Part shown: in pieces, positions 40,300-61,274 of the stretch
How the letters are laid out: each line of letters opens with the position of its first letter
How positions within the stretch are numbered: position 1 is the first letter of the stretch
NCBI GenBank assembly: GCA_043822105.1
Contig: JBDRCD010000003.1
Span: forward strand, 870-64,869
DNA from: an archaeon
GTDB lineage: Archaea > Nanobdellota > Nanobdellia > Woesearchaeales > GCA-2686295
DNA length: 64,000 nt
Direction: 5' to 3'
Position numbers and translations under genes: made by a program
Notes under the pieces: model-generated
Told to the model about the DNA's origin: nothing
Databases searched by the model: none
Seen by the model: only the letters and a program-made list of their open reading frames with translations

Positions 40300-40412
40300 G
40301 GGCGGATAGTTCAGTCTGGTAGAACGCTTGGTTGGCATACAAAGAGCCGGCTCTTTGAGTTTGGCTTGTTCCAAAAATCAAGAGGCCCCGGGTTCAAATC
40401 CCGGTTCGTCCA
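40300..40412 (+). tRNA. tRNA-Ala(GGC) with a ~39-nt intron
   Basis: Acceptor GGGCGGA/TTCGTCC with G3:U70, anticodon stem CTTGG/TCAAG, loop TTGGCA plus an intron containing the palindrome AAAGAGCCGGCTCTTT, T arm CCGGG-TTCAAAT-CCCGG. Confidence 0.8.
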
Positions 40413-42020: not shown

Positions 42021-42142
42021 GTCGGCGTAGTATAGCCTGGTTAATGCCCCAGACTCATATATTTGAGTGTTGAGCTGAAAAGCGATGATAATAACTTGAT
42101 GGGGATATCTGGTGATCGGGGGCTCAAATCCCCCCGCCGACA
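42021..42142 (+). tRNA. tRNA(CAT) with a ~47-nt intron. Elongator Met or Ile2 cannot be distinguished by eye.
   Basis: Acceptor GTCGGCG/CGCCGAC (G1:C72, so not an initiator), anticodon stem CCAGA/TCTGG, loop CTCATA plus intron, T arm GGGGG-CTCAAAT-CCCCC. Confidence 0.75.
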
Positions 42143-43477: not shown

Positions 43478-43959
43478 AATATTCTGTTGAAATAATTCAT
43501 AACTTTCTTTGGAACGCTTTTTTCTGTTTTGAAAATATCTGGACTGACTTTAAGAGTGTCGTTCTCATGGGCAATGTACATGCTTCCTTTGTTCATAATG
43601 AAATAAACATCATTGAATTTTGCTGTTTCTGAATAACCATTATTGGCTCTTTTTTCAAGGCCAGAAAACATATCTTGGTTGGTTGGTAGCATGTCATAAT
43701 ATATTGGTAGTTTTTTTTTAGATTCGGAGTTGAGAAGATAGGTCTCGTTCTTTCCATAATCATTTGTTTCCCAATTAACTTCCAGTCCAGAAGGATTATT
43801 GAAGAAGTTTTTCTCAATTGGTTGTCCTCCGTCGAAAAGATTATAGTCTAACTTTCTTAGTTCTGAATGATTTACATATGCTATAAGAGCAACCGTGAAC
43901 AGACTAAGCTTAGCAAACACAGCCCAACTAAAGTTTCCAAGTTTTCCCATTTTTTTCAC
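43474..43959 (-). CDS. Membrane-anchored hypothetical protein
   Basis: ORF track. One N-terminal TM helix. Confidence 0.4.
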   Translation of the reverse strand: MKKMGKLGNFSWAVFAKLSLFTVALIAYVNHSELRKLDYNLFDGGQPIEKNFFNNPSGLEVNWETNDYGKNETYLLNSESKKKLPIYYDMLPTNQDMFSGLEKRANNGYSETAKFNDVYFIMNKGSMYIAHENDTLKVSPDIFKTEKSVPKKVMNYFNRIF

Positions 43960-44115: not shown

Positions 44116-44760
44116 CTATCTTTTATATTTGAGTTCTCGTAATCTTCTTTCTGTCTCTTCTTTTACTGCTCTCATACCTGCTCCATCATCATTTTTTTGA
44201 TTGAATGAATCCCTTACTTGTCTAAGAGATTTTCCATTGTGATAACGTGCGCTAGGATTTATCGCCAATGCTTCATCGAAGACTTTTATTGTAGTAGCCC
44301 AGTCACCTTGCAATCTAAATGAATCACCCAGTATCATATACCAGTAGTCATCCTTTGGGTATCTTTGTGTTCCCATGAAAAAAAATAACTGTCTGTTTTT
44401 TCTTTCTTTTTTTGTTCTTCCAAAACTATCTGTAGTCTTTTTTACTTTGTTCATGTAGGATTCATCTATATTTATTGCTTTCTCGAAATAATCCCAAGCT
44501 ACATTTTGTAATCCAAAGTATTTTTTGTTTAGCTCTTTTATTCCTTTATTATAGAGTTCTTCTGCTTCTTTTATTTTATCTTCGCTTAAGATAGTGGGTT
44601 TTGTTATTTTCTTTGGTTTAGTTTCCATATTATCTTTTTGTTGGATTGTATTTTCTTCTTTTGTTGGCTTTCTGTCTTTTATCTTGTTTTCTATTCCGCC
44701 AGATATTATCTCTGTTTCCCTGTCTTTGATTTTCTTCTCTATCCCGCCTTGTTCTACCAT
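44116..44760 (-). CDS. TPR-like protein, paralog 4, with a duplicated GGIE(K/N)KIKDR N-terminal motif
   Basis: MVEQGGIEKKIKDRETEIISGGIENKIKDRK... with TPR-like helices in the C-terminal half. Confidence 0.65.
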   Translation of the reverse strand: MVEQGGIEKKIKDRETEIISGGIENKIKDRKPTKEENTIQQKDNMETKPKKITKPTILSEDKIKEAEELYNKGIKELNKKYFGLQNVAWDYFEKAINIDESYMNKVKKTTDSFGRTKKERKNRQLFFFMGTQRYPKDDYWYMILGDSFRLQGDWATTIKVFDEALAINPSARYHNGKSLRQVRDSFNQKNDDGAGMRAVKEETERRLRELKYKR

Positions 44761-44761
44761 T

Positions 44762-45340
44762 TTACATGCTCAATATTTCATTTAAAGTTATATTTCTGTG
44801 GCGTATCTCTTCTGCTCTTCTTTTGTACTGCTCAAAAGGAACGCTGTACTCAGCTTCCTTGTCTGCCTCATTCCATCCTTGCTTGAATGCTTTAATGACA
44901 TTCCAATTGGTGTCTATATTATTGTTCAGATTGCTCTGCTTTACTGCTTGCCATCTATCAAAGTAGTCTTCCATCTTTTCCTTGTAAATCCTGAAAAGGA
45001 TATCTCTTGAATCTCTGTTATGTGGATTTATAAACAAAGATATCTTCAGCAGCTTCTCCTCTACTTCATCATTACCTTGACTTTCTGCGTTGGCCATAAT
45101 GTACTTTGAGAATCCTGAATCATGATAGAGCGTGGTTCTTCCTTGTTGGAGCAATTTCACTATTTTGACATATCGGTCAACTACTGAAGGAAAATCATCA
45201 GCAAGCAATTTATCTGCGATTGAATACTCCTCTTTTTGTATATGATATTTTATCTTTTGCTCTCTTGTCAGATTCTCATAACTAATTTCTCTCTTTCTGT
45301 TTTTGATTTTCTTTTCTATCCCGCCTGGTTCTGATATCAT
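44762..45340 (-). CDS. TPR-like protein, paralog 3, with the GGIEKKIKNR N-terminal motif
   Basis: MISEPGGIEKKIKNRKREISY... Confidence 0.6.
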   Translation of the reverse strand: MISEPGGIEKKIKNRKREISYENLTREQKIKYHIQKEEYSIADKLLADDFPSVVDRYVKIVKLLQQGRTTLYHDSGFSKYIMANAESQGNDEVEEKLLKISLFINPHNRDSRDILFRIYKEKMEDYFDRWQAVKQSNLNNNIDTNWNVIKAFKQGWNEADKEAEYSVPFEQYKRRAEEIRHRNITLNEILSM

Positions 45341-46251
45341 ATTTTATCCATCCCGTATCCTTTCATTATGGCTTTGTTTGCTTCTTCTTCATTCTTTCCT
45401 TGATCTCTTAACAAGTGTCCAAGGGCTCTTTGATTTGTTATATTTTTAGGATTAATCATTGTTGCAATTCTGTAACTATGCTCAGCTGTTTCTAAGTCAT
45501 TTAAGTATAGTTTTGAAATTAAACCTTTCAATCCCCAAGCTCTTCCGCTGTTTGGGTTTCTCAGTAAAATTCTGTTTAAAACCTTCATAGCTTTCTGATA
45601 ATCTTCTTTTTTGTAATATTCATTCATTTCACTGAACATTTCTTCTTCTCTTTCTGGTGATAATTTTTCAGCTCTTTTTGTTTCTGTTTTGAGTAATATT
45701 TTGTCAATTGAATCGAACAGATTTTTTCTATAATTCACAAATTCTTTTTTGAGTTCATCTCTTTTCATTCCTATTGTGTATTCTGTGTTGCTATCAGCTA
45801 TTGCTTTCTTATTCCCATAACTATCTTCTATTTCCAGAATTTCTTTGTATTGATCTTCTGGAACAGAGAATTGCTCCATTAAAATTCTTTTTCCTATAAG
45901 GTCATATGCTTGATCAGCTAATTTTTTTGCTTCTTGCACAGTCAATTCCTGATTTGTCTGTGGCACTGCAGGCATATCATCTCTATATTTTATGGCGTCT
46001 GCAACAACGCCTTTCAGCACAATTTCTAGACCTTTATCTGGTATTTGTCCTTCTTTGAATACAAATGAAATATTCTTTTCAAGACTAGCTAATGAATACT
46101 TTTCTTTGTTTTTTAAAGCAGCAACTATCTCTTCATCTTCTGAAAGTGGTTCTTCTATTGTTCTTCCTTTTATCTTCTCTTCTATTGCACCTGGAACTAC
46201 TTCTTTGTCTCTGTTTTTGATTTTTTTTTCTATCCTGCCTTGTTCTATCAT
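45337..46251 (-). CDS. TPR protein, paralog 2, with a duplicated motif
   Basis: MIEQGRIEKKIKNRDKEVVPGAIEEKIKGRT... with C-terminal TPR repeats (YQKAMKVLNRILLRNPNSGRAW...). Confidence 0.65.
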   Translation of the reverse strand: MIEQGRIEKKIKNRDKEVVPGAIEEKIKGRTIEEPLSEDEEIVAALKNKEKYSLASLEKNISFVFKEGQIPDKGLEIVLKGVVADAIKYRDDMPAVPQTNQELTVQEAKKLADQAYDLIGKRILMEQFSVPEDQYKEILEIEDSYGNKKAIADSNTEYTIGMKRDELKKEFVNYRKNLFDSIDKILLKTETKRAEKLSPEREEEMFSEMNEYYKKEDYQKAMKVLNRILLRNPNSGRAWGLKGLISKLYLNDLETAEHSYRIATMINPKNITNQRALGHLLRDQGKNEEEANKAIMKGYGMDKI

Positions 46252-46252
46252 T

Positions 46253-47143
46253 TTAAAAACCCATTTTCACTTTCATTATCTTCATGGAAGTTTTTATGCT
46301 TTCAACACCATGTCCTGCCTGGTCTTCAACAAGTCTCTTTTCCTTGAGTGCTGGAAGGTAGCTTGGTATCTGTTCTAATGCCATGTTGACATGCTGTATT
46401 GCCTTGTCAACTCTTCCGTTTTCTCTGTATATTTGGCTTAAACCAATATGAGCATCGATGTGTTCCGGATCCAATTCTAGGGCTTTTTTCAGTTCTCTCA
46501 ACGCAGCTGTTTTATTTTTCCATTTGAGATATGTAAAACCTATACCATATTGTGCTTTGATGTTTTCAGGATCTAATTTTAATGCTTTCTTGAAATAGCT
46601 TATAGCTTCAGTATGTCTGTTATTTATCTCAAGAGCAACACCTGTGAAGTATTGCATATGGACATTCTTTGGAGCTAGTTTAGCCGCTTTTTTTAGATTG
46701 GAAATTCCTTTGCTGTAGAAATCACTCTTTTTTTTCCGAACTCGTTTCTCCAGTATCTGATGCATGCCAAGATTGAACAGAGCGACGCTGTTGTTATCAT
46801 TTATCTTCAATGCTTTCTCATAAATCCTTATCTTGTTTTTAGAAACTCCTGCCCATTCAAAGACAACAGCATAATTGTTCCAACTCATAGAATCATAGCT
46901 ATCTTCTTTTACTTTTCCAAGATAATACTTTCTGGCTAACTGATAGTTATCATCACACATGTGTTTTATGCCCTCACTCTCATCTTTGTCTTTAATAATT
47001 CTAATATTCTCAAAACCTTTTACTTTTGGTAGAGGAATTATAATCTCATCCAATCCAGTACTGTTCTTAATAATAGTTCTCTCTACTTCTATTTCTCTGT
47101 TTTTGATTTTCTTCTCTATCCCACCACTTTCTACTTGTGCCAT
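46253..47143 (-). CDS. TPR protein, paralog 1, with the GGIEKKIKNR N-terminal motif
   Basis: MAQVESGGIEKKIKNREIEVE... with several canonical TPRs (EAISYFKKALKLDPENIKAQYGIG...). Confidence 0.7.
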   Translation of the reverse strand: MAQVESGGIEKKIKNREIEVERTIIKNSTGLDEIIIPLPKVKGFENIRIIKDKDESEGIKHMCDDNYQLARKYYLGKVKEDSYDSMSWNNYAVVFEWAGVSKNKIRIYEKALKINDNNSVALFNLGMHQILEKRVRKKKSDFYSKGISNLKKAAKLAPKNVHMQYFTGVALEINNRHTEAISYFKKALKLDPENIKAQYGIGFTYLKWKNKTAALRELKKALELDPEHIDAHIGLSQIYRENGRVDKAIQHVNMALEQIPSYLPALKEKRLVEDQAGHGVESIKTSMKIMKVKMGF

Positions 47144-48495
47144 GGCTTCACCTGATACTTTTCATAGAAATCTGCTTTTCCGCTTGTTATCTCATCAAGT
47201 GTGTATCTGGACTTTTTAGCATAGGCGCTGTCTTTTGCTCGTTCTCCCTGCTCAACTGTCATAGGTGGACCCCATAAGAATGCTTTCTCACAAATCATGT
47301 CTTCAGTGTTTTTAAAATCATTGGTAAGCACACTATTGAGAAGTTTATATTCATCTTCAGTAACTTTCTCGAATTGATTCATGGTATCTGTCGCTAACAA
47401 ATCCTTTTTTGGCATTGAAACGACATTTTTTTTCCTTCCCTGTTTGAGGAATGCATTATACGTGCTCACAATTTCAGCTATGGTCTCATGACTTATCAAA
47501 TTATAATTATTGTCTCCTCTGTATTTGTGAGTATTCTTTAGAATATCATCAAGCTTATTTTTCATTCTTAAAAATGTTTGATAATCTTCATTCTGATCAA
47601 CAGGCAAAGTCTTTGTCATCTTTGGTCCTTCACTTACATCTCTATAGAAGTCCTCTGTAGACTGGTAAGCAAAGTCTTCAAGATACTTTCCTTTTGGGAG
47701 TGTTTCAGGAGCCACTTTTGCGATGGCTCTCATCAAGATGTATTTAGTACCATCATCAACATCCAGTTTGTTGATTTCCTGCATTGCAAATTCAAAGTAG
47801 TCATATTTATCATCCCATAATGCATGAGGTGTTTGATGACTTGGATGCAATAACTGGAAGTACACAACTCCAATTGCAAATCTATCTGTCTGTGGTGTGA
47901 AAAGTTTTCCTTTTTGCTTTCCCGAGTTCTCCATTAGTTCGAAACTTCTATATCCTTCTGTGCTCTGATAACTGTATGTCATTTCTTCATTTGTTGCAGT
48001 ACCAAAATCAGATACCTTGTAGATTTTTCCTACACGAAGTATATTTGATGATTTTCCATCTCTGTGAAAAAGTCCCTTCTTATGTAAAGCTACATACCCT
48101 CTCAGTGTATGTCTTATTATTTTCTTTGCAGTTGCAGGGTCCATTACTTTTCCTTCTGTAATTAAATCATCAAGAATATCATCAACACTTTCATCTGCTT
48201 TCTCCATTAGAACTCCATAATATTTGCCAAATCTCAAAGGTTCATCGTCAAATATCCTTATTATATGTTCATGAGGTCCTACAATTCTTTTTACTCTGTA
48301 AGCTCTCTCACACTCTTCTTTTCCTGTTGGTCTTGTTGGAATCTTAAGAAAAAGTTCCATATTAGTGCTTGTTTCATAGACTTCTACAAGTGCTGTTCGA
48401 TTCCAGATGGTGATATCTATATCGTTTTTTGAGAATCTTTCACTCTTCTTGATAAGACTCCTGATATTCATTTCAAGCTTTCTTTTCGAACTCAC
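47131..48495 (-). CDS. Eukaryotic-like Ser/Thr protein kinase with a ~160-aa C-terminal extension
   Basis: Catalytic loop LFHRDGKSSNIL and SDFGTA (DFG). No clear Gly-rich loop. Confidence 0.75.
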   Translation of the reverse strand: MSSKRKLEMNIRSLIKKSERFSKNDIDITIWNRTALVEVYETSTNMELFLKIPTRPTGKEECERAYRVKRIVGPHEHIIRIFDDEPLRFGKYYGVLMEKADESVDDILDDLITEGKVMDPATAKKIIRHTLRGYVALHKKGLFHRDGKSSNILRVGKIYKVSDFGTATNEEMTYSYQSTEGYRSFELMENSGKQKGKLFTPQTDRFAIGVVYFQLLHPSHQTPHALWDDKYDYFEFAMQEINKLDVDDGTKYILMRAIAKVAPETLPKGKYLEDFAYQSTEDFYRDVSEGPKMTKTLPVDQNEDYQTFLRMKNKLDDILKNTHKYRGDNNYNLISHETIAEIVSTYNAFLKQGRKKNVVSMPKKDLLATDTMNQFEKVTEDEYKLLNSVLTNDFKNTEDMICEKAFLWGPPMTVEQGERAKDSAYAKKSRYTLDEITSGKADFYEKYQVKPWHK

Positions 48496-49379
48496 TTTGG
48501 AATCACCCCGTATAATAGTCCTGTTGCATTATCTCCTTTCATACTGTTCATGCTTACGTCATAGTCTTCTTTCTCCATTGTTTCTACTATCTTTTTTATC
48601 TCCACAGGATTGTTTATCCTGTCTATGAAGGTTTTTTCTATGTCTTCCAACCTGTTCGAACTGATAATATCAAGCATCTCTCTCTGTGTTACTGTCTTTG
48701 TGACTCCATCTGTGAATAGTCCAATTACCTGATTTTGTTTTGGTCTTATTTTATGCATATCAATTTTTAATCCAGAACCTTTTCCCAAATAACTTGTAAG
48801 TCCAAGTATTGAGCCTATTACTTGTTTTTTTGTAGGTGATAGCTTTTCTGCATATTCTGGGTAATGATGATGCTCATCTGTTACTTTTTCTACATATCTT
48901 TCTCCTTCCAAATTGAAAAGTGCAACCATTCCATCACCGACATGTGCTATGTAGCCTGTTTTTTTTGGAATAAAAAGGATGTCAATTGTGGTTCCTCCTT
49001 TATCCTCAAGAAAACTAACTTTTTTGTTTTCCATCATTGCATGTAGAGCATAGTTTGTATCGCTTATGGTTTCTTCAAGAATTGAAGGTATATTTTCTAA
49101 ACTCAGCTCTTTATTTTGAATATTTTCATAAGTTTCATTTAGTTCATTCACTATCATATCTACTGCGAACTTACTGCAGAATTTGCCACCTTCATATCCA
49201 CCCATTCCGTCTGCAACAACATAGATTCCTTTATCAACATCATAATAATAATTATCTTGATTTTCTTCTCTGTTTCCAATCTCAGAGAATGCAATGACAT
49301 GAGGAACTGCTTCTCGTTGTATAATTTTTGGTGTTCCCAACAATTCTATAATATTCTTTGCGTTTTTAATGAAGTTCAT
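48492..49379 (-). CDS. PP2C-family Ser/Thr phosphatase
   Basis: NQDNYY, VADGMGGYEGG, LFTDGV and GDNATGLL motifs. ATGA overlaps on both sides. Confidence 0.8.
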   Translation of the reverse strand: MNFIKNAKNIIELLGTPKIIQREAVPHVIAFSEIGNREENQDNYYYDVDKGIYVVADGMGGYEGGKFCSKFAVDMIVNELNETYENIQNKELSLENIPSILEETISDTNYALHAMMENKKVSFLEDKGGTTIDILFIPKKTGYIAHVGDGMVALFNLEGERYVEKVTDEHHHYPEYAEKLSPTKKQVIGSILGLTSYLGKGSGLKIDMHKIRPKQNQVIGLFTDGVTKTVTQREMLDIISSNRLEDIEKTFIDRINNPVEIKKIVETMEKEDYDVSMNSMKGDNATGLLYGVIPK

Positions 49380-51820: not shown

Positions 51821-51854
51821 TGCTCACACCGAACCTGTAATCTTGTCGACATTT

Positions 51855-51870
51855 AAATAGTTAACTATTT
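51855..51870. promoter_or_regulatory. Perfect 16-bp palindrome AAATAGTTAACTATTT in the 67-bp spacer between the 813-aa and 814-aa genes
   Basis: Overlaps a TATA-like tttaaata on the minus strand, about 35 nt upstream of the TTG start. Confidence 0.5.
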
Positions 51871-51887
51871 TTTAGTGACAAAAACTC

Positions 51888-54329
51888 TTAATCTACTCTT
51901 TGCCCTTCTAAAACAGCCATTAAGTCTATTTCATTCTCTAGAGAGTAAGCGCAGACCTGATTATCTTCAAAGAAGCAGTCTTTTGCACAGTATTTTCCTG
52001 TCTTTTTTTCCATCTCTTTCTTGATATCAAGTGATAACTGCAGGTCACCATTCATAATTCTTTCCTTAAATTCAACTGTTTTGTAAACTTCGTGCATGAC
52101 TTCACGTCTGTACCATTCGTGAGGTTCGATGATTGAAATCCCTTCATATTCTTGTTTTCTATAAGAATTTATATTGAGAAACTTTGGCTGATCTTCTTCA
52201 AAGTTAAGGAACTGGTCGTTGAAAGAGTTCTTATCCAGCATGACTATGATATTTCCTGTTTTATAGCCTTGTTCTTTCATGAATTTCTCAACCATCATTC
52301 CGTAGAATGTGACTTGTTTTTTGTAGTAAGTCTCCATTGTACTAATTTTTCTGTTTGTTTTTTTGTCGATAATAACTATATCATAAACATTATTATCATC
52401 TTTCAGAAAAAACAATGTATCTGGGTGAAAAGATATGGTAAAATCTTTATCTGTTATTGGATTATGTAGAGTATCTTCAAACAGTATCTCGCAGTAATGG
52501 TCAGAAGGAACCGGCTCGTCAACTCCCGGAATTAAGGTTAATGTCTCATAATGTACTAGTCCATCAAATGGTTGATAGGTAAGCTCATGTAATTTTGTAC
52601 CTCTGTGAGCTGCAATAGGTTCTCTTAGTATGTGGTCTAAAAATCTGTGAAACTCTCCTTCTCTACCCTTTTGTACAATTGGTTTTAGAATATCATAAGT
52701 ATCTAATCTCATTCCTCTGGCTATGACTCTTTGTCTAGCACAGTTGACATGTGCTGAAAGTTCAGAACCTCTGAAATCTGCCGAAAGATCCAGTTTCTCG
52801 GATTGTTCTGATAAGAAAGTTGCTTTCCTTCCAAAGAAATTCTCTGATTTCAAATCAAATATTGGTGTTTTTCCAGCAATGTATTCTTGCCATGGAATAA
52901 CTCTCTTATCTTCACTAGTTATATTGGCTTTTATGGTTCCTTCGAAGAACATTAGTTCGACAAGTCTAGGCTCAACTCTTATGTTACCTGAAGTTGTTCT
53001 TACCATGTATTTATTGACTATTTCAAGACCTCTTTTTGTTATGAATTTCGGAACAAGATCTGTCTGGTTAGGATGTCTTCCTTTTATGTTTTCTTCCAAT
53101 AGCACCCAAGGATATTCTTTTGATTGCTTGTATCTTATGATGTTTGCTTTTGGTACTTTTATTCTTGTATATTTCTTTGCATGATTTCCAGTCCATATCG
53201 ATTCGGCTGTCTGCAGAAATCCAGTAAGCTTATTTATTGCTATCCCAGAATGAATGCCGTGGGCTTCTTGTTTTCCTGAAAGAATGCCTTCGAATCCTCC
53301 AATGTACTGAATTGGAATGTTGAGGCCGGAAAACTTAATGGCCTGTTTTATTATGTCAGAAGAGGCGCTGGTCTTTTCCATGTATAGAGGCAGTCCTTCC
53401 AGGTCATAATTGTTAATCATGTTCTTTATACTTGGCTCCAGAATCTCAAGGTATTTTTTCCATTTTACGGCCATCACCATCTTTCCGAGTTTTACAAGTC
53501 GGGCATGATGTTTTACAAACTCATCAACAGTTGTTAGTTTAGGTCTGTACACATCTTTTTTGAAATCAGCAGGACTCTTTGTGACTGATTTTTTTATGGG
53601 CTTAACATCTAACAGCCTTTCCCGATACCTGAATGTGGGGATAGAATTATCAGCGGGCTTTGTCAGTGATCCTATGGCGACCGCTCCAACTTTCTCAATA
53701 ATTTCTTTATACTCATTATATAGTACTTCATCTTCCTTTAACTCATACAATGATAATCTTTTGAAATCATTATGAGCATACAAATTTTCGAAAGTATATT
53801 TTTTCAGATCTTCAGCCAGAATATCTTCCAGTTTTATATTTCCTTCATTATCTCTTTTAATCAGTGGAACAAAGGTCCATGGTTGCATGAACATCAGAAC
53901 TATTTTATCAAGAAATTCAGGATCGAGTGTTTTAGCGATATCCAGAAGAGAATTTGTGAATCTGAATTCAGGTGAATAAGGGTCCAATCCGTCCCTTAGG
54001 CCATGTTCATCGATACTCAAGCCATTGGTTGGTATTATTATTTTATCTTCAAAGAATTTTTGTTCATTTTTCAGTTTTTCATACAACTTTCTCTCTGCGA
54101 ACCTAAACTTTTTCATTCGCCCGATTACTTGGGGCTCGAATGCTTTTACAATAATCATTTCCAGCAGGTTTATCATCTCTGCATTTTCCTTTGGATCGGC
54201 AGCAAAGGTGTTTAGATATGGCAGGAAATCTATGGATGTCCAAATGTTTTCCTTATCAAAAACATCAGAAAGCATATTGAACAGTGTATACTGTTGTTTA
54301 ACTATGTGAATGTTGTCAACACTTGGCAT
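51888..54329 (-). CDS. Large protein: ~530-aa unknown N-terminal region plus a Cas4/RecB-like PD-(D/E)xK nuclease C-terminal domain with Cys residues suggestive of an Fe-S cluster
   Basis: LSAHVNCARQ (N-terminal Cys), GTKLHEL, ISFHPD, YDIVIIDKK (D/ExK), KQVTFY (QxxxY) and KYCAKDCFFEDNQVCAY (three C-terminal Cys). No P-loop seen. Confidence 0.55.
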   Translation of the reverse strand: MPSVDNIHIVKQQYTLFNMLSDVFDKENIWTSIDFLPYLNTFAADPKENAEMINLLEMIIVKAFEPQVIGRMKKFRFAERKLYEKLKNEQKFFEDKIIIPTNGLSIDEHGLRDGLDPYSPEFRFTNSLLDIAKTLDPEFLDKIVLMFMQPWTFVPLIKRDNEGNIKLEDILAEDLKKYTFENLYAHNDFKRLSLYELKEDEVLYNEYKEIIEKVGAVAIGSLTKPADNSIPTFRYRERLLDVKPIKKSVTKSPADFKKDVYRPKLTTVDEFVKHHARLVKLGKMVMAVKWKKYLEILEPSIKNMINNYDLEGLPLYMEKTSASSDIIKQAIKFSGLNIPIQYIGGFEGILSGKQEAHGIHSGIAINKLTGFLQTAESIWTGNHAKKYTRIKVPKANIIRYKQSKEYPWVLLEENIKGRHPNQTDLVPKFITKRGLEIVNKYMVRTTSGNIRVEPRLVELMFFEGTIKANITSEDKRVIPWQEYIAGKTPIFDLKSENFFGRKATFLSEQSEKLDLSADFRGSELSAHVNCARQRVIARGMRLDTYDILKPIVQKGREGEFHRFLDHILREPIAAHRGTKLHELTYQPFDGLVHYETLTLIPGVDEPVPSDHYCEILFEDTLHNPITDKDFTISFHPDTLFFLKDDNNVYDIVIIDKKTNRKISTMETYYKKQVTFYGMMVEKFMKEQGYKTGNIIVMLDKNSFNDQFLNFEEDQPKFLNINSYRKQEYEGISIIEPHEWYRREVMHEVYKTVEFKERIMNGDLQLSLDIKKEMEKKTGKYCAKDCFFEDNQVCAYSLENEIDLMAVLEGQRVD

Positions 54330-54381
54330 AACTACTTGAGAATAAGAAAAAGTATAAAAAGTTTGCCTTATTCTGCAAAAC
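54330..54381. promoter_or_regulatory. 52-bp divergent promoter region with an inverted repeat AGAATAAG-N19-CTTATTCT around a TATA-like gtataaaaag
   Basis: Inverted-repeat arms lie at 54340..54347 and 54367..54374. This is the only spacer between the two divergent operons. Confidence 0.6.
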
Positions 54382-57300
54382 GTGAAAGAGAATAATTCAT
54401 CAGAGGAGATTAGAGTAGTAACTCATTTAGCTACAGATAGAAGTTTGATTGGTTCTTTGAATTCTAATGTAAAGATTGCTTCTTGGGCTGTAGATACAGA
54501 AAATAACAGATTTGTTGATCCACGAACAGATGTTCTAAGCATACCTTTGAGATTTCCGACAGACCATTTTAAGGAGGAAGGTAGACCAGAAGCACAGGAT
54601 CTTATAAGAGCGAGAATTACTGAATTTAGAGACATGACAAAGAAGGATCTTCAGACAATAATTGACAAGAAGAATGCTATGCTTGAACAAAGAAATCCTG
54701 GAACAAAGGCTGCAAAGAAGATAGAAGATGAGATAAAAGAGATAAGAAAAGTACAATACAGAATTAATAGATTGATAAAAAGAGGTGAAACAGCGAGGAA
54801 TAAATACGGGGACTGGGTTTATGTTATTCAATCTCCTCACTTGAGCAATATTCAGCTGACGACAGTAAACGATCTTTATCATAACAATAAACACTACACC
54901 AAAACAACTGATCTCATAAAACTTGATGTTGGATTTCCATACAATGAAATGTTATTTGTAGATGGGAAGAGTAATACTATAGGGAAACACTTTGCAACAC
55001 TATCAGATAAAAAACACTACAATCTTGATACATTTGTCAACAGCTCTATGATGGCAAGCGATTTGGAAACAACCGAATGGCAAAAACTTATCTACTCTCC
55101 AGAAGACAAGCTGAAAAGCACTCTGGAACTGATAAAAGAGTACAAGCTTGCAGAGAATGAAGAGAATCTGACAGAACTTATGGAAAACACAAAGTCTCAG
55201 ATTCTTGAATTGGTGAGAAAGAAAAAAGATAGTGTAAGAGAAGAACAGATTGTTATTGGCACTATAGCTTATGCTGAGAATCCTCTCAAGTTTTGGCAGG
55301 AAAAGGACCTGTCGCAGTTAAAGACTTTCCTGATAACGGATATGCCTGTTGAAGATTCCCTTGATGTTGATATACCTTTAATTGGGGGAACCATAAACCC
55401 AGAGATATACAAAGTCAGCAACCATGAAGAAATAATGAAAGTCATGAGCGATATAACTCAGGAATACAATCCCTTCTCAATGACTGGGCATTTCTACTTT
55501 AAATTTGACAATGGAAAACCAGGGGAACTTGGTTTGGAATATAATACCGGAATAGATGGTGAAAAACCAGAATATCAATGGGGGTTGCTTAACAAATTTG
55601 TACAGATAAGAATTGCAAGAGGAAGGCTTGATCTTGACCCGGCGCTGTATTACCAACATTATGCTCCATGGACTGTGAATAATAAGCTAGATACTGTTTT
55701 TGAAGACCTAACAGGTGTGTTTGAGAAGAAAGAGATGACTCATACAGAGCTAGAGGAAAGAATACAGACAATACTTAAAGGGGGTATTTCCGAGAAAGAG
55801 AAACTTGAATTTGGAAGGCTTCTGCATAAGTATGCTGTAAGGGATTCAATAAAATCTCTGATAAATGGGGTGATTCTTCTTCCTGAAGTGGCTGCATTGT
55901 CTATGCTTTATAGGACTCCATTTCACAGAGTATGCTCAACTGACAAGAAAAGACTTTCTGAAGAATACTGGAATAAGAGAAGTCTGGAAGATACACTGAC
56001 TTTCCGTTATGAACATCCAAGGAATGAGAAACTTACTATGAGTTTTCAACTGTCAAAAACCTACAAGAAAGCAAAGTCTGGATTCATTGAATGGGAGGAT
56101 TTCAAGATATCGGATTGGCATGAAAGAATTTTAAAACACTACGGAAACTTTGGTAATTATAAAAAAGGATTCCAGAAAGCAAGGCTGATATATCTTCATC
56201 CTCATGTCAAAGCTCTCAAAGATTTCTTTGCTGATGATGAGAATGCCATGCGAATATTTAATTTGAATTTTGACGATAGAAAAAGCAGGATAAGAATGTA
56301 CAAAGGACTGGAAGCGATAGTAGAATATCCTTTGTTTAAACTATTGGATCTTTCAACTCAGAAACTTTACAATTATATGACTAACAATGGGCATCCAGAT
56401 TTGGAAGAGAAATTCAGCAGGGAATTTGGGCTTGATCTCACGGAATCCAACATAAGGAAGTATCATAATGATATAGTGAGATATTTCAGAAACATTGGTA
56501 AGGGCTTGAAGAATGAAGAAGTTCTCAACACCTACAAGAATTTCATACTGGTAAAAGAAAGCGATACTATAGATGATTTCTGCAATAGAATAGAGGAATT
56601 CAACTTTGGGACTGTTATGGGAAAGATGGATGCTATATCAATTGGAAACCATAAGTTTGGAGGAGTGATTGACGGCCAGATGATGAATTTTGGATTTTCA
56701 GACCCTAAATCCAATAAAGGCAAGAAGAATGAAGCTGCAAAAGAGATTCTCCAACTAGTTATGGACAAGGTATTGAGAGAGAAAGATTATGCTTCTGCAT
56801 TAAAGGCTGTTAGAGACATTTCTTGGGGGATACAGAACAGTATGATAGAAGAAGACGCTCTACAGTACAAGATAGAAGCGAAGAGGAATTTTTCAGAGTA
56901 TTCTTCAGCGGCTACGCTATGGGCAAAAGATGAATATGTTAAGAGGAGAATAAAGAAGGGAGAGATTATGATATACCATGCAGACACTAATGAACTGCTT
57001 GCAGATATGCTAGGAATCGCAGTTGATTTCTCGTCTGGACAGCCAATGTATTTTTCTACAGATAATGGCAAAAATATGCTAGAGAAAGATTTTGAAGATG
57101 AGTTGGAAGATAACTATAAGATGAAAAAGAAAGGCAAAATAAGAGAGTTGGTAGAATGCGTTGTGCCAACGACTCTAAAGCAATACCCTATTCTTTTTGA
57201 AGAGATGTCGGACATGGAGTTTGACTATGATGAACAGATAAGAGAACAGCAGGTAATGAACAGGGTTATATGTGGTGTAGCCACCGATGAACATATAGAT

Positions 57301-57405
57301 ATGCTGGTGAAACTATACAAAAAAATATCTCTTAATTATGAGCCTCCGAAGAAACAACCCAAACAAAAAATAGAGAATCCTGCTCAGATAACCATTGGTT
57401 TCTAA
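54382..57405 (+). CDS. Highly diverged family-B DNA polymerase-like protein. Exonuclease motifs are present. Canonical polymerase motifs are not recognisable.
   Basis: MASDLETTEW (Exo I, DxE), FYFKFDNG (Exo II-like), KYAVRDSIKSL (Exo III, YxxxD) and LLPEVAALSMLYRTPFHRV (like ...ELSRLSG...). In the motif A, B and C positions I find LIYLHPHV, YKGLEAIVEYPLF and VKESDTIDDF. GTG start. Confidence 0.6.
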   Translation: MKENNSSEEIRVVTHLATDRSLIGSLNSNVKIASWAVDTENNRFVDPRTDVLSIPLRFPTDHFKEEGRPEAQDLIRARITEFRDMTKKDLQTIIDKKNAMLEQRNPGTKAAKKIEDEIKEIRKVQYRINRLIKRGETARNKYGDWVYVIQSPHLSNIQLTTVNDLYHNNKHYTKTTDLIKLDVGFPYNEMLFVDGKSNTIGKHFATLSDKKHYNLDTFVNSSMMASDLETTEWQKLIYSPEDKLKSTLELIKEYKLAENEENLTELMENTKSQILELVRKKKDSVREEQIVIGTIAYAENPLKFWQEKDLSQLKTFLITDMPVEDSLDVDIPLIGGTINPEIYKVSNHEEIMKVMSDITQEYNPFSMTGHFYFKFDNGKPGELGLEYNTGIDGEKPEYQWGLLNKFVQIRIARGRLDLDPALYYQHYAPWTVNNKLDTVFEDLTGVFEKKEMTHTELEERIQTILKGGISEKEKLEFGRLLHKYAVRDSIKSLINGVILLPEVAALSMLYRTPFHRVCSTDKKRLSEEYWNKRSLEDTLTFRYEHPRNEKLTMSFQLSKTYKKAKSGFIEWEDFKISDWHERILKHYGNFGNYKKGFQKARLIYLHPHVKALKDFFADDENAMRIFNLNFDDRKSRIRMYKGLEAIVEYPLFKLLDLSTQKLYNYMTNNGHPDLEEKFSREFGLDLTESNIRKYHNDIVRYFRNIGKGLKNEEVLNTYKNFILVKESDTIDDFCNRIEEFNFGTVMGKMDAISIGNHKFGGVIDGQMMNFGFSDPKSNKGKKNEAAKEILQLVMDKVLREKDYASALKAVRDISWGIQNSMIEEDALQYKIEAKRNFSEYSSAATLWAKDEYVKRRIKKGEIMIYHADTNELLADMLGIAVDFSSGQPMYFSTDNGKNMLEKDFEDELEDNYKMKKKGKIRELVECVVPTTLKQYPILFEEMSDMEFDYDEQIREQQVMNRVICGVATDEHIDMLVKLYKKISLNYEPPKKQPKQKIENPAQITIGF

Positions 57406-57445
57406 TCTCGCAAAACATATAAACCATTGAATTTTACAATTGCTC

Positions 57446-59512
57446 ATGATTATAAATTCTCTCAAGCTGAAAAACATCCGTTCCTACAAAAAAGAAGAAA
57501 TAGTTTTTCCAGAAGGGTCAATAATGCTTTCAGGTGACATTGGTGCCGGGAAAACAACAATTCTTTTATCCATAGAGTTTGCTCTTTTTGGCATAATGAG
57601 GGGACAGCTAACAGGCGGAAGTCTTCTGAGGCATGGTACAAGTGAAGGATACGTTGAGCTGACATTTACCATCGACGATAAAAAAATAGTCATTAAAAGA
57701 TATCTTAAGAGAAAAAATAAAACCGTTGCACAGGATTCAGGTCACATTATTATTGGCGAAGAAAAATATGAACTGACACCCGTTGAGTTGAAGTCAAAAA
57801 TACTTGAACTGATAGGCTACCCAGACGAGCTTCTGACAAAGTCAAAATCTCTAATATTCAGATACACAGTTTACACGCCTCAGGAGGAGATGAAGCAGAT
57901 ACTTCTGGAAAGTCAGGACGAAAGACTTGAAGTTATCAGAAGGATATTCAACATTGATAAATACAAGCGCATAAAAGACAACACTTTGAATTATCTCAAG
58001 CATTTGAGAATAAAAAAAACTGAGTTTGAAACCAGAATTGAAGACTTGGAAGAGAAAAAGAAAGAGTATTCCAACTACAATGAAAAAATAAAGACCATAA
58101 AAGAAGAAGCTGCAAAAATACAGCTTTTGATTGATGATATTACAAAGAAATTCAATGAACAGCAGTCAAAGGTTAAAGTTCATGAAGAAAAGATAAAAGA
58201 AATAGAATCATTGAAAGGACAGATTGAAATCAAAACCAGCAACATCAGCAACAACAAAACAAATGTCAAAAACAGTGATCAAGAACTGAAAGAACTCAAC
58301 AGTGCAATTCTCAAACTGGATGAAGAACTGAAAGACGTGACAATGATTGACATAAAAAAGCTGAAAAAGCAAAGAGAAGAGTTAGTTAAAGAAAAAGAGA
58401 AACTGTCCGACAACCTTGAAAAAATAAGAGATAGGGAAGCAGAGTTCACAGCAAAAAAGAACAGCTCCAAAGAAATCATGAAAAAACTACTGTCACTCGA
58501 CAAATGTCCTGTCTGCGAACAGATGGTTGATTCTAATCACAAAAAACACGTCAATGAAAGAGAAAATAAAAACATTGTCAATGTTGAAGAACAGCTATTA
58601 AAACTCCAGGATTTGAAAAGAAAGCGAAAAAGTGCTCTTGATGAACTGGAAAAAAAGATAGGTGACCTGACAAACAACATCAACAGGAACGAGCTGATAT
58701 CCATAAAAAAAGAACAGCTTGACAGCAACATAAAAGAAAAAGAACAGATAATGAAGGATCAGATTCTCACAAAGTCCGTCATTGAAAAAGAAGAACAGGA
58801 CGTAATTGACATAAAAAAACAGTTGGAATCACACAGGGACATTGAAAAGATATATTTACAGGAAAAACAGACATTGGAATTGATAAGATCCCAGAAACAG
58901 TCACAGGACATAAGAAGGGCAGAGCAGCTTCGGGAAGTAAAAACTTTGGAAGAAGTAAAACTGAGAGTCAAAGAGGAGATAAACAAAAAAGAAGAGTCAA
59001 AGAAAAGTCTGGTCTATGTCAACGAAGTGCAGAACTGGATACACAAGTTTTTCATGAACGTAATCTACATGATGGAAAAACAAATCATGCTGACAATCTA
59101 TCAGGAATTCAACGAGTATTTTCAGGAATGGTTCAATATTCTAATTGAGGAAGAGACCCTCAATGTGAGGCTTGACGAGACATTCACACCTCTGATAGAA
59201 CAGAACGGCTATGACACATACATTGCAAATCTTTCAGGCGGAGAAAGAACCTCAGTTGCACTGGCCTACAGACTGGCGCTGAACAAAGTTATCAACGATT
59301 TCATGGGACTTATAAAAACAAAGGACCTGCTGATACTGGATGAGCCGACAGACGGATTCTCATCTGACCAGCTGGACAAGATAAGGGATCTTTTGGAGAT
59401 AATAAACATCAGACAGGTAATCCTTGTTAGCCATGAGCCAAAGCTAGAAAGCTACGTTGATCATATTCTAAGAATACATAAAAAAGAACATCTAAGCAAA
59501 GTAATTGCTTGA
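57446..59512 (+). CDS. Rad50/SbcC-like SMC ATPase with a short coiled coil and a CxxC zinc hook
   Basis: GDIGAGKTT (Walker A), YTPQEEM (Q-loop), LDKCPVCEQ (hook), LSGGERTSVALAYRLAL (signature), LLILDEPTDGF (Walker B), ILVSHEP. Confidence 0.8.
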   Translation: MIINSLKLKNIRSYKKEEIVFPEGSIMLSGDIGAGKTTILLSIEFALFGIMRGQLTGGSLLRHGTSEGYVELTFTIDDKKIVIKRYLKRKNKTVAQDSGHIIIGEEKYELTPVELKSKILELIGYPDELLTKSKSLIFRYTVYTPQEEMKQILLESQDERLEVIRRIFNIDKYKRIKDNTLNYLKHLRIKKTEFETRIEDLEEKKKEYSNYNEKIKTIKEEAAKIQLLIDDITKKFNEQQSKVKVHEEKIKEIESLKGQIEIKTSNISNNKTNVKNSDQELKELNSAILKLDEELKDVTMIDIKKLKKQREELVKEKEKLSDNLEKIRDREAEFTAKKNSSKEIMKKLLSLDKCPVCEQMVDSNHKKHVNERENKNIVNVEEQLLKLQDLKRKRKSALDELEKKIGDLTNNINRNELISIKKEQLDSNIKEKEQIMKDQILTKSVIEKEEQDVIDIKKQLESHRDIEKIYLQEKQTLELIRSQKQSQDIRRAEQLREVKTLEEVKLRVKEEINKKEESKKSLVYVNEVQNWIHKFFMNVIYMMEKQIMLTIYQEFNEYFQEWFNILIEEETLNVRLDETFTPLIEQNGYDTYIANLSGGERTSVALAYRLALNKVINDFMGLIKTKDLLILDEPTDGFSSDQLDKIRDLLEIINIRQVILVSHEPKLESYVDHILRIHKKEHLSKVIA

Positions 59513-59857
59513 TTAATCCTGCTTTGGTGTGAACAGCACAAAAGATCCTTCATTATGCTGAGAATTGTTGTCATGAGACAGGATATCATATTCTTTGATA
59601 ATTGCTTGCTTTTCCATATTTGAGATATAGTTCAGAATAGTTGTTTCAACACCATATTTGGCTGCAATATCCTTTGAATCACCTGTAAGGCTGATCGTCC
59701 AAGTATCTCTTGCTATAGAAATCATGTTGGATGGATTTACAAACTGCAGATTTATTCCTGCGGCTCCGTCAACAGCAATATTTGAAATAGAATAGACTTC
59801 CTGTTTTTCATAGTTGTCGATTAACTCTCTTATTGCTTTTCCTATATTATCTTGCAT
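59513..59857 (-). CDS. Hypothetical protein, convergent with and abutting the Rad50-like gene
   Basis: ORF track only. Confidence 0.4.
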   Translation of the reverse strand: MQDNIGKAIRELIDNYEKQEVYSISNIAVDGAAGINLQFVNPSNMISIARDTWTISLTGDSKDIAAKYGVETTILNYISNMEKQAIIKEYDILSHDNNSQHNEGSFVLFTPKQD

Positions 59858-60872: not shown

Positions 60873-61274
60873 ATGAGGTTTACGAAGATAACCATAATAA
60901 GCTCCAGAAAACCACAGGAGCACGACATAAACGAGCAGCTGCAATGGTTTGGTGGAAGTCTTGGTCTTTTTGGCATAAGAGACAAGGACAAGAGCTGTTT
61001 TCGTGTGTTTATAGTTCTTCTAAAGAATCTAAAAGAAGAAGGGCCCATAAGCTCCGATGAAATAGCAGACAGAACTGGTCTTACCAGAGGAACGGTTGTT
61101 CATCATTTAAACAGGCTGATGAGTTCAGGAATAGTAACTTCTGAAAAAGGCGGTTATCAGCTGAAAGTTGATAAGTTGGAAGACCTTGTAGACATCATAA
61201 AAGACAATGTTGACAGGACATTTGACAATCTGAAGAACATAGGCAAGGATTTGGATAAGAAGTTGGGGTTATGA
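60873..61274 (+). CDS. Winged-helix (ArsR-like) transcriptional regulator
   Basis: ISSDEIADRTGLTRGTVVHHLNRLMSSGIV helix-turn-helix. Confidence 0.65.
   Translation: MRFTKITIISSRKPQEHDINEQLQWFGGSLGLFGIRDKDKSCFRVFIVLLKNLKEEGPISSDEIADRTGLTRGTVVHHLNRLMSSGIVTSEKGGYQLKVDKLEDLVDIIKDNVDRTFDNLKNIGKDLDKKLGL

Follow-up and report, generated by a model that had tools for sequence, protein, structure and literature searches.

A conserved divergent gene pair of Woesearchaeota encoding a putative Cas4/RecB-type nuclease fusion and a family-B polymerase-fold protein without polymerase carboxylates

The main finding of this study is that, among the ten genes of an island in a 64-kb archaeal window (the whole stretch of DNA that was analysed), only the head-to-head genes p813 and p1007 appear to form a conserved functional module, and that three units of independent inheritance would have come together here by chance: this pair, a rad50 gene (p690) and an orphan operon. 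Our best explanation, to which we give a probability of about 0.5 as a whole, is that p813 and p1007 make up a two-nuclease processor of DNA ends or junctions, passed on by vertical inheritance, and represent neither a defence island nor a phospho-regulated system.

The ten open reading frames have the coordinates, strands and lengths (Table 1) listed in an earlier reading made from the letters alone, and the 52-bp spacer between p813 and p1007 is likewise as described there. That sequence-only reading also placed all eight minus-strand genes in a single operon, which probably does not hold, as p813 is set apart from p814. Because the 67-bp gap between them contains a T5 run and TATTTAAAT, a TATA-like element, the minus strand probably comprises two transcription units, of which the gap is the likely boundary. 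From p814 to TPR1, the seven genes follow one another closely, with 1-nt gaps (TPR1/TPR2 and TPR3/TPR4) or overlaps of 4 nt (TPR2/TPR3, kinase/PP2C and PP2C/p814) to 13 nt (TPR4/kinase). The island is indeed bounded by serS on the left and dus on the right, but a 161-aa ORF intervenes between serS and TPR1, and the tRNA lies to the left of serS. Searches with Pfam, NCBIfam and PADLOC-type profiles found no Mre11, Cas1, integrase or helicase in the region, as had been stated, and there is no break in base composition across it.

Table 1. Features of the region, with positions in the 64-kb window.
Feature	Coordinates	Strand	Length	Remarks
tRNA	42021-42142			intron-containing; left of serS
161-aa ORF	43474-43959	minus	161 aa	between serS and TPR1
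Four tagged genes	44116..47143	minus		N-terminal GGIEKKIKNR tag common to all
TPR1	44116-44760	minus		tagged; weak TPR, below Pfam cut-off
TPR2	44762-45340	minus		tagged; no TPR match (Pfam)
TPR3	45337-46251	minus		tagged; weak TPR, below Pfam cut-off
TPR4	46253-47143	minus		tagged; clear TPR (Pfam)
Hanks-type Ser/Thr kinase	47131..48495	minus	454 aa	H144RDxKxxN, D163FG; ~230-aa C-terminal extension
PP2C-type Ser/Thr phosphatase	48492..49379	minus	295 aa	D57GMGG, T223DG, D283NAT
p814	49376..51820	minus	814 aa	first gene of orphan operon; LDH/MDH-like Rossmann domain and beta-rich C-terminal half
p813-p814 gap	51821..51887	minus	67 bp	p813 stop to p814 start; T5 run and TATTTAAAT
p813	51888..54329	minus	813 aa	pair partner 1; conserved N-terminal ~520 aa and C-terminal ~290-aa putative nuclease
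Divergent spacer	54330..54381		52 bp	between p813 and p1007; central TATA-like element TATAAAAA
p1007	54382..57405	plus	1007 aa	pair partner 2; full-length family-B DNA polymerase fold, DEDDy 3'-5' exonuclease
p690 (Rad50)	57446..59512	plus	688 aa	adjoins the pair but is not conserved with it
114-aa ORF	59513..59857	minus	114 aa	convergent with rad50; accompanies rad50 and not the pair

The evidence for a conserved pair is its synteny. Counting loci that include upstream DNA, homologues of p813 and p1007 are divergent neighbours in 15/15 genome loci located through p1007 and in 16/16 located through p813, and the two genes are head to head in 7/7 metagenome loci. Pair loci come from ~21 GTDB species, all of them Woesearchaeota/Nanobdellota, and the neighbours in relatives are housekeeping genes: aEF-1alpha (the next commonest neighbour after the partner gene), S10 and Cbf5. 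The window and its closest relative (L001) have flanking wHTH and Cbf5 genes in common. In the 52-bp spacer, TATAAAAA is flanked by an inverted repeat, AGAATAAG/CTTATTCT, and the equivalent spacers of relatives, mostly 16-95 bp long, have a central TTTATAAA-type element. The spacer is probably a shared bidirectional promoter, and p813 and p1007 would probably be co-expressed from its central TATA element.

This distribution bears on the proposal that the pair defends against viruses or plasmids by degrading the ends of invading DNA. Cas4-family and DEDD exonucleases do recur in defence and CRISPR adaptation, and solo-Cas4, which p813 resembles, is common and over-represented in DPANN, where a role in defence or repair has been proposed (PMC5704561). 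The pair also diverges faster than its surroundings (48% identity vs 65-93% for neighbouring housekeeping genes), which would fit conflict-driven genes as well. However, we consider a defence role unlikely given the single fixed arrangement among housekeeping genes in every sampled locus, the lack of an integrase or composition break, the absence of relatives from the viral contigs searched and a PADLOC scan that matched no system, as the sequence-only reading had expected. Moreover, the evolution of solo-cas4 genes is generally that of ordinary genes inherited vertically, including in DPANN (PMC5704561).

The protein p1007 combines the family-B DNA polymerase (PolB) fold and a complete exonuclease with the loss of the polymerase carboxylates; the original description of a protein with a DEDDy exonuclease and no canonical polymerase motifs is thus upheld by an alignment of 49 family members, hhalign, an AF2 model and Foldseek. 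PolB3-type polymerases are its best PDB matches, both by profile (Pfu PolB at 4.7e-28; 98.7% probability in hhalign, colinear over 701 columns) and by structure (KOD/9°N/Tgo PolB at E 2.5e-19 over ~950 columns, for an AF2 model with pLDDT 86.8 and pTM 0.88). The resemblance to Pfu, KOD, 9°N and Tgo enzymes extends to fold, domain order, ExoI/ExoII/ExoIII, a GR-x-x-x-D segment and the KKRY/thumb region. The exonuclease residues D227, D376, Y484 and D488 are kept in 49/49 members and E229 in 48/49. Unlike in PolB3-type polymerases, the aspartates of motifs A and C are missing (H606 and N716-T-Y in p1007): across the family, the motif A position is F/T/H/N, and the DTD of motif C has become N716 (45/49 members) followed by variable residues. 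Two insertions (65-131 and ~240-285) and the constant pairing with p813 also set p1007 apart. In the AF2 model the first insertion is a long helical hairpin, the second lies in the exonuclease domain, and there is an extra helical region at the C terminus.

We propose as the ancestor of p1007 an archaeal PolB3-type polymerase, whose metal-binding aspartates were lost. Since the fold and the complete exonuclease are kept without them, p1007 could hold a primer-template or duplex/ssDNA junction and degrade the 3' end, but would not extend it. Sequence-based verdicts of a "dead polymerase" can be mistaken: PolB2/Dpo2, long called inactive, turned out to be active, as a translesion-synthesis extender (PMC8764526). 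That p1007 likewise still polymerizes through a non-canonical active site seems very improbable, even though D774 is present in 41/49 members and the fingers-like positions K636/R638 show fair conservation, since Dpo2 keeps one motif C Asp, whereas the 49 diverse members have no conserved acidic residue at or beside the motif A/C positions, and Pfam DNA_pol_B matches 0/49 of them (DNA_pol_B_exo1 matches 12/49).

Comparison with other degraded PolB proteins highlights similarities and differences. Like PolB2/Dpo2, which occurs with arCOG07300 and an inactivated RadA and for which a role in repair has been proposed (PMC4104785), p1007 is a PolB paralogue with degraded catalytic motifs in a conserved small neighbourhood. 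However, PolB2 has both its polymerase and its exonuclease centres degraded, the motif C Asp apart, whereas p1007 has an intact exonuclease and no polymerase carboxylates, and its partner is a Cas4-like fusion instead of a RadA-like protein and a small helical protein. The C-terminal PolB module of Pol epsilon has also kept the PolB fold after loss of polymerase chemistry, but that module has an inactive exonuclease as well, forms part of a fusion with an active PolB, and lacks a nuclease partner.

The second member of the pair, p813, carries in its C-terminal ~290 aa a putative Cas4/RecB-type PD-(D/E)XK nuclease with four cysteines, an assignment supported by motif order together with HMM matches below threshold. 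As in Cas4, solo-Cas4 and RecB-AddB-Dna2 nucleases, an upstream Cys, His, Asp, D/E-x-K, QxxxY and a C-terminal CxxC-x(n)-C follow one another in canonical order, here as cysteines C530, C781, C785 and C793 and motifs GTxxH577-581, HPD635-637, D650/D655-x-K657 and Q672xxxY676. This motif set, read correctly from the start, is borne out by an alignment of 13 homologues in which C530, H581, D637, D650, D655, K657, Q672, Y676, C785 and C793 are invariant. The HMM matches are phrog_1706 "CRISPR/Cas associated" (weak, 6e-4) and PDDEXK_1 (3/13 family members, best 0.008); profile searches of the PDB found no nuclease, and the AF2 model has a pLDDT of 35. Unlike the Cas4 and RecB-AddB-Dna2 nucleases, p813 falls under the cut-off of every family searched and comes without Cas1/Cas2 or a helicase domain; it is about four times larger than Cas4 because of its conserved 520-aa N-terminal domain, for which we detected no relatives and which could alter this reading.

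Characterised relatives of this type of nuclease cut 5' strands or flaps. Beside the 3' exonuclease of p1007, p813 would supply a Cas4/RecB/Dna2-type nuclease with a four-cysteine (Fe-S type) cluster, and from fold, motifs, synteny and distribution we infer that the two interact as a motor-less machine of two nucleases with opposite polarities, which would trim DNA ends, flaps or junctions in chromosome repair or replication of Woesearchaeota. DNA-end processing, initially suggested for the whole island, is still plausible for the pair alone. The idea of two nucleases, one per strand polarity, acting on one DNA end, with one subunit a catalytically degraded relative, recalls AddAB/AdnAB, as an analogy and not as homology of the complex. 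Unlike AddAB/AdnAB, the pair has no helicase/translocase motor, and a DEDDy PolB exonuclease would provide its 3'-5' activity in place of a second RecB nuclease.

The C-terminal tail of p1007, disordered in the AF2 model, ends in AQITIGF, and 11/49 relatives end in Qxx[LIM]F-COOH (vs 0.02 expected); the pair may be tethered via this QxxLF-type tail, which no more than about one family member in five has. Such a PIP-like motif in part of the family, the retention of the whole PolB fold and the fact that Dna2 uses the same Fe-S PD-(D/E)XK nuclease type as p813 would also suit a pair that is a replication factor rather than a repair factor, in which p1007 is a non-catalytic replisome scaffold or in-trans proofreader and p813 a Dna2-like Okazaki-flap nuclease. 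In addition, a bacterial-type PolB of the B7 kind is found in Woesearchaeota and could have taken the place of the ancestral PolB3 (PMC7544198). We regard this as possible but doubtful: the invariant DEDDy residues argue for catalysis and not for pure scaffolding, PCNA binding is putative, and no replisome genes lie near the pair loci. It nevertheless overlaps the two-nuclease processor that we favour, differing only in the process served.

The neighbouring p690 is the ordinary housekeeping Rad50 of this clade. It has a Walker A (G32-T39), zinc hook (C356PVC), signature (S599GGE), Walker B (630-636) and H-loop (663-665), passes the AAA_23/SbcC Pfam cut-offs, and matches NCBIfam Rad50 models at 3e-40 and archaeal Rad50 heads in the PDB at 1.5e-20. 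The zinc-hook assignment and the ATG at 57446 thus stand—the latter is the most likely start because the homologue aligns from there—but the product has 688 aa, not 689. Although p690 shares the ABC ATPase motifs and the zinc hook with the Rad50 of Mre11-Rad50, it has a short coiled coil, and in its clade rad50 occurs without an adjacent mre11. We found at least 476 full-length orthologous loci; among the best 80, whose neighbourhoods were analysed, Mre11 is directly upstream of rad50 in 31, and the pair is within 6 kb in none. Loci without the pair include relatives with a 63-65% identical Rad50 that keep the order rad50-dus-HTH-cbf5. The 114-aa ORF downstream, for which a family search gave no match, has a homologue adjoining rad50 in another relative (L019), and a 121-aa ORF occupies its position in the closest relative.

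These data also bear on the sequence-only proposal that all ten genes form one DNA-end-sensing machine—Rad50, PolB exonuclease and Fe-S nuclease—regulated by the kinase/PP2C and TPR adaptors. The genes do physically adjoin in the window, and in the closest relative rad50 also follows downstream of the homologue of p1007, separated from it by an additional 332-aa gene. However, this adjacency is confined to these two close lineages and is not seen around the pair elsewhere, the 67-bp gap splits p813 from the p814 operon, and none of the 40-odd related pair loci, that of the closest relative among them, has the kinase, PP2C, p814 or the tagged proteins. The expected co-occurrence was therefore seen for p813 and p1007 and not for Rad50, the kinase, PP2C, p814 or the tagged genes; with conserved synteny lacking for eight of the ten genes, a single system is largely refuted already, and we rate it as extremely improbable. 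Because only the pair is syntenic, control by phosphorylation and TPR adaptors has no comparative support, and neither has the defence role.

The p814-PP2C-kinase-tagged-protein operon is instead a separate, lineage-specific signalling operon, with no relative in any set searched. For p814 there was no homologue in 5.8 billion clusters, and the kinase has no close relative in GTDB genomes. Several of the identities first proposed for these genes were confirmed. The kinase (Pkinase at 3.1e-18) and the phosphatase (PP2C_2 at 1.7e-14) are above Pfam cut-offs, the latter also matching an Stp1/IreP model at 1.9e-29. In p814, G42xGxxG, R202, N232, D259/R263 and H292 align with LDH catalytic residues in PDB matches to LDH/MDH at 0.006-0.05, and TIGR01771 L-LDH is matched at 5.7e-6, far under its cut-off. 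The four tagged genes had been taken for TPR paralogs; the tag is real, but only TPR4 is a clear TPR protein, and similarity is limited to the ~17-aa tag, the remainder of the four proteins being without detectable similarity. Neither the GTDB genomes nor the JGI metagenomes contain the GGIEKKIKNR pattern. In the window it occurs in six copies, all at the N termini of these four genes and nowhere else, and the DNA differences within the tag are mostly synonymous.

The first finding of this study is that the 15-kb region, which had been read from its sequence alone as a single ten-gene island for DNA-end processing under phospho-control, is a juxtaposition of three units: a conserved head-to-head gene pair encoding the PolB-like protein p1007 and the Cas4/RecB-like nuclease fusion p813, a housekeeping block around the Rad50 gene p690, and an orphan signalling operon (p814, PP2C, kinase and the four tagged genes TPR4 to TPR1). 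The idea of one system is unsupported, since only the pair is syntenic, the kinase, PP2C, p814 and TPR genes are absent from the closest relative locus (L001), and Rad50 loci occur without the pair. Our ORF table reproduces the gene coordinates of that earlier reading exactly. However, its eight-gene minus-strand operon needs amending: from p814 to TPR1, seven genes are indeed tightly packed, with junctions that are either 1-nt gaps or overlaps of 4-13 nt, but between p813 and p814 there is a 67-bp gap containing a T5 run and a TATTTAAAT element. Pfam matches in the region comprise Pkinase, PP2C_2, AAA_23/SbcC and TPR, with none for p814, p813 or p1007. The left flank consists of housekeeping genes (HAD, HIT, an intron-containing tRNA, serS and a 161-aa ORF), the right flank of a 114-aa ORF, dus, a wHTH gene and Cbf5 (DKCLD domain), and there is no break in base composition across the region. 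This DKCLD domain, together with the names of the nearest homologues, assigns the organism to Woesearchaeota, a lineage of DPANN. This case calls for caution, as it illustrates that a neighbourhood of genes that looks striking in one genome can have arisen by accident. Two side observations concern the flanks. Two tRNA genes with introns (113 and 122 nt) were found with Rfam and both missed by ARAGORN. The wHTH regulator, which adjoins Cbf5, shows unusually strong conservation, being 93% identical to its L001 counterpart, compared with 70% for Cbf5, 65% for Rad50 and 48% for the pair.

Coordinates of genes and other features in the window and in two related loci
Feature	Sequence	Position	Strand
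tRNA gene with intron	window	40300-40412	
tRNA gene with intron	window	42021-42142	
TPR1	window	44116-44760	minus
TPR2	window	44762-45340	minus
TPR3	window	45337-46251	minus
TPR4	window	46253-47143	minus
Tag-bearing region (TPR1 to TPR4)	window	44116-47143	
Kinase	window	47131-48495	minus
PP2C	window	48492-49379	minus
p814	window	49376-51820	minus
p813	window	51888-54329	minus
Pair spacer	window	54330-54381	
p1007	window	54382-57405	plus
p1007 hairpin arm	window	54574-54774	
p1007 exonuclease-domain insertion	window	55099-55236	
p1007 C-terminus	window	57303-57405	
p690 (Rad50)	window	57440/57446-59512	plus
Small ORF convergent with rad50	window	59513-59857	
wHTH regulator	window	60873-61274	
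Small ORF convergent with rad50	L019	8048-8401	
Extra 332-aa gene	L001	13102-14100	
Small ORF convergent with rad50	L001	16220-16585	

The structural characterization of p1007, showing that it is a PolB that has retained its proofreading site and lost the canonical polymerase site, is another outcome of this study. A word-indexed search recovered a single relative, while HMMER, run exhaustively over 1.84 billion representatives, recovered 62, of which 49 make up our family alignment. The protein has the domain order of PolBs (N-terminal, exonuclease, palm, fingers and thumb), and hhalign aligns it colinearly with Pfu PolB (98.7% probability, residues 21-973 against 9-756, 701 columns). For the exonuclease and thumb segments, the Pfu reference sequence used there is consistent with the PDB profile alignment, in which the family profile matches Thermococcales PolB (4.7e-28) over the exonuclease region and the KKRY/thumb region. 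When the AlphaFold2 model computed from the 49-sequence alignment (pLDDT 86.8, pTM 0.88) was searched with Foldseek, it matched the full-length KOD, 9°N, Tgo and Pab PolBs over ~950 columns (best E 2.5e-19, on the order of ~1e-19), viral PolBs being poorer matches than archaeal ones. ExoI (DxE), ExoII (NxxxFD) and ExoIII (YxxxD) are all present, with D227, D376, Y484 and D488 in 49/49 members and E229 in 48/49, and Pfam DNA_pol_B_exo1 matches 12/49 members; the DNA_pol_B polymerase-domain model matches 0/49. The catalytic Asp of motif A (DxxSLYPS) is missing, its column at a strand-helix junction being occupied by F, T, H, N, Y, S or A; in motif C, on a hairpin, DTD has given way to N716 (45/49) and variable residues after it; and the 49-member alignment contains no conserved acidic residue in the palm. 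Because the exonuclease motifs are invariant and the motif A and C aspartates absent, we conclude that proofreading and polymerase sites have had opposite fates, and the agreement between hhalign, AlphaFold2, Foldseek and motif columns upholds the original description of a PolB-like protein with a DEDDy exonuclease but without canonical polymerase motifs. A note of caution comes from PolB2/Dpo2, which was predicted to be dead and later proved active (PMC8764526), although Dpo2, unlike the p1007 family, keeps one motif C Asp.

The model of p1007 also shows two insertions that canonical PolBs do not have, a long two-helix hairpin arm in the N-terminal domain (residues 65-131) and, within the exonuclease domain, an inserted helical segment (residues ~240-285), and these predicted elements could be partner-binding surfaces. 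At the other end of the protein, Q-x-x-[LIM]-F is the exact carboxyl terminus in 11/49 family members (P0011, P0014, P0019, P0024, P0034, P0039, P0041, P0042, P0052, P0056 and P0062), against 0.02 expected by shuffling. This tail lies where archaeal PolBs carry their PCNA-binding peptide and resembles a truncated PCNA-interacting peptide in both position and chemistry, which makes clamp interaction a candidate function and a lead worth following. The window protein itself ends in AQITIGF, and its tail is disordered in the model. No known PCNA clients with which to compare QxxLF were found among 1220 sampled ORFs.

For p813, the partner of p1007 in the pair, searches found relatives 49% and 28% identical to it, and many more were recovered through genomic context. 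The initial assignment to Cas4/RecB-like nucleases holds for the motifs. In 13 homologues, the order His, Asp, (D/E)xK, QxxxY, which is that of Cas4/RecB/AddB/Dna2-type Fe-S nucleases, is represented by invariant GTxxH581, HPD637, D650/D655-x-K657 and Q672xxxY676. C530, C785 and C793 are invariant as well and C781/782 is found in most of these homologues, yielding a C-terminal C-x2-3-C-x7-C pattern; the four cysteines, one upstream and three C-terminal, are putative Fe-S cluster ligands. However, p813 has no significant match to curated family models or solved structures, and statistical support for a nuclease is weak (phrog_1706 at 6e-4, and PDDEXK_1 in 3/13 homologues, at best 0.008). PDB profile searches with either the full-length protein or its C-terminal domain retrieved no nuclease, scans of all 13 members against PHROGs and NCBIfam added nothing further (no match at all in NCBIfam), and an AlphaFold2 model from a 3-sequence alignment was unusable (pLDDT 35). 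The N-terminal ~520 aa contain many invariant charged residues and have no detectable relatives outside the p813 family, making this conserved domain a good target for structure determination. The possibility that it is a hidden palm domain or Mre11 was rejected because hhalign found no relationship between the p813 family and PolB, the p1007 family or a DPANN Mre11 alignment. A stand-alone Cas4, sought as an hhalign reference, was not present in ~1.2 Mb of collected DPANN loci.

Wherever the sampled loci include the upstream DNA, the two genes of the pair lie together. L001 (48% identity) has the p813-like and p1007-like genes head to head, followed by an extra 332-aa gene, rad50, the small ORF, wHTH and Cbf5, while a 26-28% identical relative keeps the divergent pair alone. 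From the p1007 side, a scan of GTDB species genomes, seeded with an 8-sequence subset of the 49-sequence alignment, identified 15 loci, and a p813 homologue is head to head in 15/15. From the p813 side there are 17 loci, with a p1007 homologue head to head in 16/16 of those having upstream DNA, and the same arrangement is seen in 7/7 informative metagenome loci. The pair is distributed over ~21 species, which are Woesearchaeota/Nanobdellota without exception; viral contigs contain no relative of it, and after the partner genes themselves, aEF-1alpha is the neighbour seen most often. The divergent spacer generally measures 16-95 bp and has one palindromic TATA element of the TTTATAAA type at its centre, ~26-28 nt away from either start codon (in the window, L001, L005-L009, L014 and L017); in the window, the inverted repeat AGAATAAG/CTTATTCT lies on either side of this element. 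The arrangement suggests one shared bidirectional promoter, which would produce near-leaderless transcripts. As a side observation, the 332-aa protein encoded by the extra gene of L001 is helical, and in L002 two genes (87 and 240 aa) are called in the corresponding region. Mre11 was considered as an identity for the 332-aa protein and rejected, and no confident family match was found.

What might the pair do? p1007 would provide a 3'-5' exonuclease of the DEDDy type, carried on a PolB scaffold that binds DNA junctions, to which p813 would add a Cas4/Dna2-type nuclease. That the two genes are invariably linked head to head, are inherited vertically and sit in a housekeeping context points to a role in genome maintenance, through the trimming of ends or flaps during repair or replication, and not in defence; that p813 and p1007 interact, as well as their substrate and polarity, is what we infer. 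If the two proteins act together, this would represent a DNA-end-processing machine of novel construction and give solo-Cas4-type nucleases a concrete housekeeping partner. More ambitiously, and with perhaps one chance in five of being correct, an ancestral PolB3 of Woesearchaeota may have become a stand-alone, possibly clamp-tethered 3'-5' exonuclease that, with a Cas4-like Fe-S nuclease bearing a wholly new 520-aa domain, forms a previously unknown end-resection/flap-processing machine that partly stands in for Mre11, NurA or Dna2 in these reduced genomes. If true, it would establish the "exonuclease-only PolB" as an enzyme class, the first of its kind, tied to an obligate nuclease partner. 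PolB paralogues that have been inactivated, such as PolB2, Pol epsilon-C and poxvirus F12, form a recurring and poorly understood theme, to which we add a small-genome DPANN clade that retains a PolB without polymerase site, its proofreading site perfectly conserved, locked to a Cas4-like nuclease gene. Unlike in p1007, where the exonuclease is intact, the exonuclease site is degraded in both PolB2, which has RadA-like partners (PMC4104785), and Pol epsilon-C, and the partners of each differ. Surveys of PolB diversity name B7 and B9 PolBs in Woesearchaeota and do not mention the p1007 family; a Cas4 survey (PMC5704561) describes vertically inherited solo-Cas4 in DPANN and does not mention a polymerase link. 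Our full-text literature searches found no description of the pair.

The second unit is the rad50 block. The proposal that p690 is a zinc-hook Rad50-like ATPase is borne out by its head motifs and hook (Walker A 32-39, CPVC 356, SGGE 599, LLILDEP 630 and VSH 663) and by archaeal Rad50 heads in the PDB, which match both lobes. NCBIfam Rad50 models also match, although below the equivalog cut-off (best 137.9 bits vs 700), and p690 is a short, divergent DPANN form of Rad50. It has orthologues in at least 476 full-length loci, and in the best 80 of these (L019-L098) the pair is never within 6 kb of rad50, while Mre11 (Metallophos) is directly upstream in 31. Loci with an upstream Mre11 are mostly Pacearchaeota-like and farther from the window; Mre11 is absent from both the window and L001 and does not adjoin rad50 in the clade nearest the window. 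In L019 (Rad50 65% identical), the rad50-small ORF-dus-HTH-cbf5 block is kept with no pair upstream. The small ORF (114-121 aa), which is convergent with rad50, conserved in close relatives and without family match, slightly overlaps the 3' end of rad50 in L019 and L001. As had been expected, PADLOC detected no full gene set of a known defence system, and p813, p1007 and p814 gave no match. p690 matched an LmuB model of Lamassu (1e-32), an identity that we reject as generic, since such a match is expected of any SMC/Rad50 protein and there is no effector gene such as LmuA.

The third unit is the second operon, whose suggested link to the pair comes down to adjacency in one genome, the operon being absent from the other pair loci. 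The kinase and PP2C calls were correct, with scores above Pfam gathering cut-offs (Pkinase 66.6 bits vs 31.7, PP2C_2 54.3 bits vs 24), and both enzymes look catalytically competent judging from their motifs (HRDxKxxN and DFG; DGMGG, TDG and DNAT). The N-terminal half of p814 scores 25.9 bits against TIGR01771 (cut-off 303) and aligns weakly but consistently with LDH/MDH structures in the PDB (E 0.006-0.05), GxGxxG, R202, N232, D259/R263 and H292 coinciding with catalytic residues. The only homologue of p814 in the searched databases is itself, and the kinase has no relatives in GTDB genomes. The last four genes had been described as TPR paralogs. They do have a tag in common, but the rest of their sequences show no detectable similarity, pairwise similarity being confined to ~17 N-terminal residues containing GGIEKKIKNR, and only TPR4 is clearly above the Pfam TPR cut-offs (TPR1 and TPR3 are below, TPR2 has no match). 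The DNA pattern of the tag was found in neither GTDB genomes nor JGI metagenomes. There are six copies of the tag, which is duplicated in two of the four proteins, and most of the nucleotide differences among these copies are synonymous, which indicates that it is under selection as a short peptide motif, plausibly one on which the kinase, the phosphatase or the p814 beta-rich domain docks.
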